From Escherichia phage vB_EcoM-ZQ3, in the sequence record MW630116.1: a stretch of DNA of 64,000 bases. The stretch is one strand, 5' to 3'. The translations under genes were made by a program, and so were the position numbers. This document shows, piece after piece, positions 5,766-6,528 of this stretch. Within the stretch, counting starts at the first letter, position 1. Each line of letters begins with the position of its first letter. Below the pieces are notes generated by a model, which did not search any database, was not told the DNA's origin, and saw only the letters and a list, made by a program, of their open reading frames with translations.

Positions 5766-5980
5766 CTAAAGAACAACATGAATACATTAAAGGGCTTATC
5801 TATGAATCTGAAATGGCGGCTATGATTTATGGGCGCCAGATTCAACGATTAGAATCTTTGCCTCCGACTAATGACCGATTGTTAGTTCAGTCTCGTGCTA
5901 ATCTGAAAAATGAATATCAGAATAAGTGGGCAGTAGCGACTAAAGCTCTTCACGAGTATATTGAATCTTTAGTAAAATAG
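5756..5980 (+). CDS. hypothetical protein (pseT.1 position)
   Basis: 74 aa ORF, SD AAGAGGAAAA before ATG. Confidence 0.45.
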   Translation: MPMTKEQHEYIKGLIYESEMAAMIYGRQIQRLESLPPTNDRLLVQSRANLKNEYQNKWAVATKALHEYIESLVK

Positions 5981-6009
5981 TTTACAAACTCTCAGGAGCA
6001 GAGTATAAT
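5980..6009 (+). promoter_or_regulatory. T4-type early promoter
   Basis: GTTTACA, 18-nt spacer, GAGTATAAT. Confidence 0.7.
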
Positions 6010-6037
6010 GCTCCTATGGATAATTGAGGAAATCTAA

Positions 6038-6337
6038 ATGAAAACATTACTAGAGAATTACATCAAACGGTCTGATGAGTATATTGATATCTGTCGTGGA
6101 ATGTCACTCGGCAATTATGACAAAGATGCAGCAAAGGCACTAGATGAAGCAGGTAAAGCTCTTCGTAAAGCTGCTAAAGAAAAAGGGTTGGATTTGCAAC
6201 AACTCAAAAGTCATATGATTAAATTTATTTCTTCAAACGTTAGAAGTACGTCAATTAATAAAAACGTTGCTGAAATTAATAAAGACCGGCGCGAGCATAA
6301 CATTCGTATTCTTGAAATTTTCTTAGGAATAAAATAA
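6038..6337 (+). CDS. hypothetical protein
   Basis: 99 aa ORF with SD GAGGAAA; own early promoter upstream. Confidence 0.45.
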   Translation: MKTLLENYIKRSDEYIDICRGMSLGNYDKDAAKALDEAGKALRKAAKEKGLDLQQLKSHMIKFISSNVRSTSINKNVAEINKDRREHNIRILEIFLGIK

Positions 6338-6528
6338 TGGACCAAGCCAAAATCGATAAGTTAATCCATACGCTTGTAGCAGATATCAATACACGGGCTC
6401 TTCGTAAATCGCAGAATGGCGATTCTTGGACTATGCAAGATTGCAAGAAAGGTGCTGAACTAGGACGTGAAATTGCTAAAATTCTTGGTGGACAATTTGA
6501 ATTTGCTGAAGAGGTAGTAAAACTGTGA
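6337..6528 (+). CDS. hypothetical protein
   Basis: 63 aa ORF; start overlaps upstream stop (TAATG). Confidence 0.4.

Follow-up and report, generated by a model that had tools for sequence, protein, structure and literature searches.

Probable piecemeal assembly of an early-operon front, with a PeSL-type element and two small genes before pseT, in an RB69-like Mosigvirus

PeSLs (promoter-early stem-loops) of T4-like phages combine a sigma-70-like early promoter with a stem-loop, which mostly lies between the -35 and -10 hexamers or overlaps the -10 (Arbiol et al. 2010, PMC2839356). They follow an AT-rich stretch with an upstream stop codon, precede a Shine-Dalgarno sequence and an ATG, and are found beside indels in hyperplastic regions (PMC2839356; Comeau et al. 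2014, PMC4122927). For T-even phages the promoter consensus is TTTACW-N17-TAYWAT (PMC4122927), and cassettes bounded by PeSLs are a documented route of gene gain in T4-like phages (PMC2839356). The hyperplastic regions of T-even phages also hold small early genes, such as the arn.x, ndd.x and cd.x ORFs and the internal-protein loci; these short genes are expressed early, are not essential, differ from one close relative to the next and often form translationally coupled strings. Lambdoid phages offer a third comparison in the moron, a self-contained promoter-gene-terminator unit. Here, we describe a locus ahead of pseT that recalls all three. We consider it likely that an early operon begins at this locus, in the variable spanin-pseT island of an RB69-like Mosigvirus, and that its front was assembled piecemeal and encodes small helical accessory proteins.

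The window (the whole stretch of DNA analysed, 64,000 nucleotides of Escherichia phage vB_EcoM-ZQ3, record MW630116.1) comes from an RB69-like Mosigvirus: positions 3400-9600 are 98.7% identical to Escherichia phage JS09, a member of the RB69 group. The 549 bases at 5980-6528 are 100% identical in JS09, SSE1, F2, pEK20 and others, and 148 phage records match them at an identity of at least 95%; the two ORFs occur in about 149 records. On the + strand the genes run rnlA, alc, pseT.3 (i-spanin), pseT.2 (o-spanin), pseT.1, ORF-A, ORF-B and pseT (Table 1), and profile matches place the three genes upstream of ORF-A in PHROG 739, 812 and 2347, respectively. The original prediction had counted five ORFs between alc and pseT, the two spanin genes first, and these are present, with the promoter and the last two ORFs at the coordinates it gave.

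ORF-A and ORF-B are already known, as annotated hypothetical genes in a known type of variable island. The RB69 record (AY303349, 2003) named them RB69ORF231c and RB69ORF230c, and JS09 reuses these names. In RB69 they occupy the same position between pseT.1 and pseT; the ORF-B protein is 100% identical to RB69ORF230c, and ORF-A differs from RB69ORF231c at 4 of 99 residues. Neither RB69ORF231c nor RB69ORF230c has a functional assignment in any record examined. Names of the form RB69ORFnnn mark an RB69 ORF without a T4 gene name. RB69ORF231c (3765-4001 of the AY303349 locus) is annotated from an internal ATG as a 78-aa protein; the full 99-aa frame is intact in RB69, with a Shine-Dalgarno sequence and a conserved N-terminus. 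Two neighbouring genes also deserve mention. The alc frame as called mechanically (187 aa, from 4571; 4571-5134) begins upstream of the early promoter at 4574-4603, and alc of JS09 is 166 aa long, with a start that matches window position 4634. A gene for DAHP synthase (phospho-2-dehydro-3-deoxyheptonate aldolase; 330 aa, 8517-9509) separates cd.2 from cd; JS09 has this gene and RB69 does not, a further indel in the same hyperplastic region.

Table 1. Features of the window, with coordinates counted from its first nucleotide
Feature	Position	Strand	Remarks
GTTTAC-N18-TANNNT sites	3390, 4574, 5980, 8102, 19106, 31595, 34437, 49519	+	
Early promoter, sigma-70 type	5980..6009	+	GTTTACA -35 region (TTTACA 5981-5986), 17-nt spacer, TATAAT 6004-6009
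Stem-loop part of the PeSL-type element	5988..6015	+	-10 hexamer inside the loop of the main stem
Leader ATGGAT...TTGAGGAAAT	6016..6037	+	Shine-Dalgarno GAGG 6026-6029, 5' of ORF-A
ORF-A, 99 aa, ATG start	6038..6337	+	RB69ORF231c, phrog_2364
ORF-B, 63 aa	6337..6528	+	RB69ORF230c, phrog_8683
Repeat GCTCTTCGTAAA (encodes ALRK)	6158..6169 in ORF-A; again 6397-6408 in ORF-B	+	Crossover site of a natural A-B fusion
pseT (polynucleotide kinase/phosphatase), GTG start	6525..7420	+	Third cistron of the operon; frameshifted

An early promoter had been predicted at 5980-6009, and the sequence there bears this out: TTTACA-17-TATAAT (5981-6009) scores 11/12, the top promoter match within 3300-9600. It is one of eight sites in the 64-kb window with the extended pattern GTTTAC-N18-TANNNT, all of them on the + strand, against 1.07 expected; a count of eight was reached in 0 of 100 shuffles. 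The T4 early promoter Pe133295, noted in the T4 record between cd.3 and cd.2, lines up base for base with a sister site at 8103, and the GTTTAC-type sites are therefore taken to be early promoters of this phage. The promoter at 5981 itself has no T4 counterpart, T4 being without this DNA. From the sequence, transcription is predicted to start near 6016-6017.

The same element is able to fold. In its main stem AGGAGCA (5994-6000) pairs with TGCTCCT (6009-6015) over 7 bp, leaving the -10 hexamer in the loop, and an alternative 5-bp stem in the spacer pairs ACTCT (5988-5992) with AGAGT (6000-6004). The fold of the element amounts to -12.3 kcal/mol and its stem is also present in the centroid structure, with individual fold z-scores that are modest, about -1.4. 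Over the eight promoter sites together, perfect spacer stems total 40 bp, compared with a null mean of 25.9 from random 25-mers of the window (P about 5e-5). No T-run follows the stem-loop, and a simple scan did not place the stem among terminator-like sites, leaving a terminator role unsupported; an Rfam scan of 5000-7500 returned no RNA family. In most early promoters of this phage, the spacer or the surroundings of the -10 contain a short inverted repeat with a GGA-rich loop, as in TACCACAA-gga-TTGTGGTA at 3391. Promoter stems are conserved in T4 at Pe133295 and at the rnlA promoter, though the -35 region of T4 rnlA is MotA-box-like and not GTTTAC.

Judged on its sequence, 5980-6037 fits the published PeSL-type composite element. 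The promoter at 5981-6009 agrees with the TTTACW-N17-TAYWAT consensus, and the stem-loop encloses the -10 (5994-6000/6009-6015) or, in its alternative form, lies in the spacer (5988-5992/6000-6004), the commonest placements in the original description. The AT-rich stretch and upstream stop are found just 5', where the TAG of pseT.1 (5978-5980) overlaps the G of GTTTAC and has TCTTTAGTAAAA before it, and the Shine-Dalgarno GAGG (6026-6029) and the ATG at 6038 lie just 3'. The element sits in a hyperplastic region exactly on the boundary of the indels that distinguish T4, RB6 and Mosigvirus, within an island that differs in every genus inspected, and between genera its conservation far exceeds that of the genes behind it. 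It departs from described PeSL cassettes in that its stem is AT-richer than the GGGG/CCCC type of RB49. Moreover, ORF-A and ORF-B have no second flanking PeSL, there being none between ORF-B and pseT and the closest sister sites lying at 4574 and 8102, so that the model of mini-circle excision between two PeSLs does not directly apply.

The downstream side of the locus suggests how far the promoter acts. The ATG of ORF-B overlaps the TAA of ORF-A (6337), and the TGA of ORF-B overlaps the GTG start of pseT (6525-6528); in RB6 and VR5, ORF-A overlaps pseT in the same ATGA manner. On the + strand no terminator-like site was found downstream of the promoter before 8100, ahead of the next promoter at 8103. 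The overlapping stops and starts, together with this lack of a terminator, point to a promoter that heads an operon running into pseT, and on these grounds the 5980 promoter is predicted to serve pseT and the cd.x genes in one operon with ORF-A and ORF-B. Thus, the original prediction that the promoter drives the two ORFs holds in so far as it precedes both, but the promoter would not be private to them, since the predicted operon continues into pseT. Host sigma-70 RNA polymerase would read the PeSL-type element (5980-6037) soon after infection, and ORF-A, ORF-B and pseT would be translated in series from a polycistronic mRNA through their overlapping stops and starts. The locus resembles a lambdoid moron in that extra genes, preceded by a promoter of their own, interrupt a gene order that is otherwise conserved. 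Unlike in a moron, however, the promoter appears to serve the conserved pseT as well, no terminator follows the ORFs, and the parts seem to have separate histories.

In the window, pseT is split into frames of 58 aa and 237 aa by a 4-bp deletion (GAAA) in the repeat AAAGAAAGAAAG, near 6690 (break near 6684-6701), relative to JS09. Among 403 phage records that match, none has the deletion, and the best identity, 98.7%, equals the gap. Either the isolate has a genuine pseT pseudogene or the deletion is an error of sequencing. A minus-strand ORF of 149 aa at 6276..6725 was rejected: all genes here are on the + strand, and the selection signal lies in the + frames.

A comparison with T4 and its relatives shows how the locus differs between phages. 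The T4 record has pseT.3, pseT.2 and pseT.1 alone before pseT, the three pseT.x ORFs that the original prediction had stated, with pseT.1 ending at 134908 and pseT starting at 134907. The presence of both ORFs in T4, which had been named as the finding that would speak against an insertion, was looked for in that record; neither ORF-A nor ORF-B is there. Two extra ORFs and an extra promoter relative to T4, in a variable island, are accordingly borne out by the T4 record and by the junction alignment. That alignment, originally proposed for the alc-pseT interval and run for the pseT.1-pseT junction, recovers the extra DNA relative to T4 but also finds ORF-A already present, by itself, in RB6, and it resolves three nested states. 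In T4, pseT.1 is followed by pseT; in RB6, an ORF-A homologue of 100 aa stands between the two, without the promoter; in RB69 and the window, the order is pseT.1, a 45-bp promoter block, ORF-A, ORF-B and pseT. Like RB6, the phages T6, RB3 and PST have ORF-A between pseT.1 and pseT without the promoter or ORF-B. Tequatrovirus records were sampled evenly with a 400-bp T4 junction probe, counting the 45 records that cover at least 95% of it; an insert of 300-320 bp is found at the junction in 41 of the 45, including T6, RB3 and PST, and the T4 state in the other 4.

ORF-A is widespread: tblastn found homologues in 708 phage records, about 147 of them Mosigvirus, 461 at 60-80% identity (Tequatrovirus and relatives) and 100 more distant, and at every locus inspected the homologue adjoins pseT. 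Essentially all Mosigvirus records have both ORF-A and ORF-B. The junction sequences also suggest how T4 came to differ. T4 reads ...AAATAAATGAAAAAGATT, and RB6 reads ...AAATAAATGAAAACT... before ORF-A and ...ATGATGAAAAAGATT after it. ORF-A and pseT both start with ATGAAAA, and the T4 sequence is the expected remnant of a deletion between these two copies. T4 therefore most likely lost ORF-A by deletion between these two repeats. The direction of this and of each other indel is the one suggested by distribution and junction sequences. For ORF-A, then, T4 would represent a minority, deleted state, and T4 gene content is not the default at this locus. The junction holds further variation in other phages. 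In Yersinia phage TG1 (1501-1788 of the locus extracted), the ORF-A homologue is annotated in two pieces, of 50 aa and 37 aa, and the gene is probably in decay in Tegunavirus; in FelixPlatter and ChristianSchoenbein a putative homing endonuclease gene is annotated beside ORF-A or ORF-B and pseT.

Set against T4 alone, the extra DNA of the window is one contiguous block, with the promoter at its start and the pseT start at its end. Such a block is what would be left if a single mobile cassette of promoter, ORF-A and ORF-B had been inserted as a unit between pseT.1 and pseT in an ancestor of this phage, and the PeSL-bounded cassettes mentioned above provide a documented precedent. The original prediction of a single inserted promoter-plus-two-gene module took this form, and it is not borne out: promoter, ORF-A and ORF-B are distributed differently. 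Most Tequatrovirus records have ORF-A without the promoter and ORF-B. Conversely, ORF-B occurs without ORF-A in Kanagawavirus Q7622, at the same site but after a 160-aa gene that takes the place of ORF-A, and elsewhere in the genome in the Klebsiella phages JD18 (Jiaodavirus) and MY02 (Marfavirus), where it lies in the motA-arn-asiA island. The promoter element stands before a different gene in Dhakavirus, and at the downstream edge of the block ORF-B runs straight into pseT, with no second PeSL. We therefore regard insertion as a single unit as highly improbable.

The wider distribution of each part is more in keeping with piecemeal assembly. ORF-B also occurs as a domain in Serratia jumbo phages of the Moabite type; in Moabite itself it forms the C-terminal domain of a 158-aa protein, the N-terminal part of which has no family match. 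An exhaustive HMMER profile search found the ORF-B family in just 5 clusters among 1.84 billion representative proteins, and no cellular relatives or informative fusions among them. On this sequence evidence, the ORF-B family is of narrow range and confined to phages, and its members move from one island of early genes to another. In the Dhakavirus phages VR5 and IME341, the 160-aa gene (phrog_4482) stands behind a copy of the promoter/stem-loop with 3 of 44 bases different, and ORF-A and pseT come next. Although VR5 and the window have promoter elements this similar, identity between their ORF-A proteins is only 57.6%. Kanagawavirus and MHG19 have a GC-rich UUCG hairpin at the promoter position, without the promoter hexamers, and then an ACGGAT...TGAGGAA leader. 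A leader of this type (6016..6037 in the window) is kept before different first genes in Mosigvirus, Dhakavirus, Kanagawavirus and MHG19. As far as sequence comparison goes, the island combines four gene families (ORF-A, ORF-B, pseT.1 and the 160-aa gene) in a mosaic around a conserved stem-loop and leader. The ORF-B homologue of Klebsiella phage vB_KpnM-YP11 diverges fully after residue ~23 (...NTRALH) and resembles a frameshifted copy.

We thus favour a model of piecemeal assembly, in which recombination at short homologies produced the present arrangement step by step, through separate gains and losses and not through a single insertion. ORF-A would be a widespread neighbour of pseT in T-even phages that T4 lost through the ATGAAAA-ATGAAAA deletion; ORF-B would have moved between early-gene islands; and the promoter/stem-loop would be held in common, almost unchanged, with Dhakavirus, where it precedes another gene. 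The locus provides a worked example of how a hyperplastic island may be assembled: its three states, in T4, T6/RB3 and Mosigvirus, are nested, its junctions show microhomology, and a promoter/stem-loop is kept nearly unchanged while the genes behind it are swapped. Its significance beyond annotation is small; both this type of island and this type of regulatory element are known, and the locus is an ordinary instance of them.

ORF-A and ORF-B are real genes under purifying selection. The dN/dS of ORF-A is 0.12 against RB6 and that of ORF-B is 0.08-0.19 against Q7622 and JD18, in both cases with synonymous sites near saturation. Both are short and lack a curated family, as would be true of chance open frames in a non-coding spacer. 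That reading, however, is refuted by dN/dS values of 0.08-0.19 across saturated synonymous divergence, and it also conflicts with the conservation of the two ORFs in hundreds of genomes, with a Shine-Dalgarno sequence for each and with confident structure models; we give it practically no credence.

What the proteins do is less readily addressed by homology. ORF-A matches phrog_2364 over residues 1-99 (E 1.3e-48) and ORF-B matches phrog_8683 over residues 1-63 (E 2.2e-42), both families being without function in PHROG. Pfam and NCBIfam gave no match above cut-off for ORF-A, ORF-B, all 19 members of the ORF-A family or the neighbouring genes of the island; with PHROG included, these scans yielded only families of no assigned function. 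In the AlphaFold2 models, ORF-A is a four-helix bundle (helices 2-19, 27-48, 53-67 and 75-96; mean pLDDT 79) and ORF-B a two-helix hairpin (mean pLDDT 85, and 95-97 over residues 11-40), with an invariant core, D-I-N-T-R-A-L...W-T..D-C-K.G-A..G-R, that is polar and lies around the turn. Sequence searches of the PDB with single sequences and profiles found nothing below E 0.05 for either protein. Foldseek against the PDB returned designed helical bundles only for the ORF-A model (E above 0.3) and nothing below E 1.9 for the ORF-B model, and in a search of the viral folds of BFVD the sole significant match of ORF-B was its own homologue in the Serratia jumbo phage. Counting as a match anything above a curated cut-off, or a fold match at E <= 0.001, neither ORF has one in Pfam, NCBIfam or PDB. 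The original statement that the ORFs hold no recognisable motifs stands after these searches, which include the remote homology search proposed with it and leave only PHROGs of no assigned function. No study of function came up in the literature under the ORF names, PHROG ids or locus tags, and the island goes unmentioned in an accessory-gene screen of 2025 (PMC12373910).

Some of the weak matches of ORF-A might be taken to suggest a small DNA-binding, helix-turn-helix-like regulator of early transcription. The protein is basic (pI 9.6), and its sub-threshold matches are all to DNA-binding helical domains: TnsD (E 0.0017), GapR (E 0.011, in 3 of 19 members), Cgl2762 (2jn6; E 0.083) and the Z-alpha domain of PKZ (E about 1). 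Nonetheless, every one of these falls below the family cut-off, and they are mutually inconsistent; the designed bundles of the fold search give no such lead, and the four-helix bundle of the model shows no clear helix-turn-helix. Such a regulator seems to us very unlikely.

Gene position suggests a different role. In every genus inspected (Tequatrovirus, Mosigvirus, Dhakavirus, Kanagawavirus, Tegunavirus and MHG19), ORF-A or ORF-B lies directly 5' of pseT and overlaps it, and the two tRNA-repair genes, rnlA and pseT, stand on either side of the island. ORF-A, and perhaps ORF-B, could then work with polynucleotide kinase (Pnk), for example by tuning tRNA repair or countering an anticodon nuclease or another RNA-targeting host defence. 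However, T4 repairs tRNA by Pnk and Rnl1 without either ORF, according to the note on rnlA in its record, and the ORF-B homologues of the Klebsiella and Serratia phages lie far from pseT. Shared descent alone can explain the adjacency, and the Pfam, NCBIfam and PDB searches revealed no homology to RNA-binding or nuclease-inhibitor families. We consider a partnership with Pnk unlikely, and distinctly unlikely the related proposal that ORF-A, ORF-B or both are unrecognised counter-defence or Pnk-modulating factors. If that proposal were true, the recurrent placement before pseT in six T4-like lineages would reflect a functional partnership with the tRNA-repair pathway, and the ORFs might, for example, neutralise an anticodon nuclease or other RNA-targeting defence that T4 cannot handle.

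A more general role is suggested by analogy with other small early T-even proteins: each of the two would most likely bind a host or phage macromolecule, which may aid takeover of the cell or counter host defence, with no pointer from sequence or fold to a particular target. ORF-A and ORF-B resemble the small early genes of the hyperplastic regions in being short, in varying between close relatives, in their apparent translational coupling, and in sharing the same kind of island, probable dispensability and predicted early expression. They differ from Arn, AsiA, Stp, Dmd and the internal proteins (IPs) in showing no sequence or fold relation to them, as judged by family and fold searches and not by direct pairwise tests. 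Both proteins are candidates for host-takeover or anti-defence screens, but none of the present results singles them out from hundreds of similar T-even ORFs.

T4 lacks both ORFs, and a wild Mosigvirus has lost parts of both, and ORF-A and ORF-B are therefore probably dispensable, a view based on T4 and one assembled contig. In that 56-kb Mosigvirus contig (Logan ERR7568838, 2501-2752 of the extracted locus), residues 1-44 of ORF-A are fused in frame to residues 25-63 of ORF-B, and the neighbouring genes, including pseT, are intact. The fusion arose by deletion between the 12-nt direct repeats GCTCTTCGTAAA (window 6158-6169 and 6397-6408). An origin of ORF-A and ORF-B as paralogues, suggested by the ALRK that both repeats encode, was rejected: the common stretch is just 12 nt long, and the two belong to different PHROG families. 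The fusion is an example of the microhomology deletion that is typical of T4-like phages.
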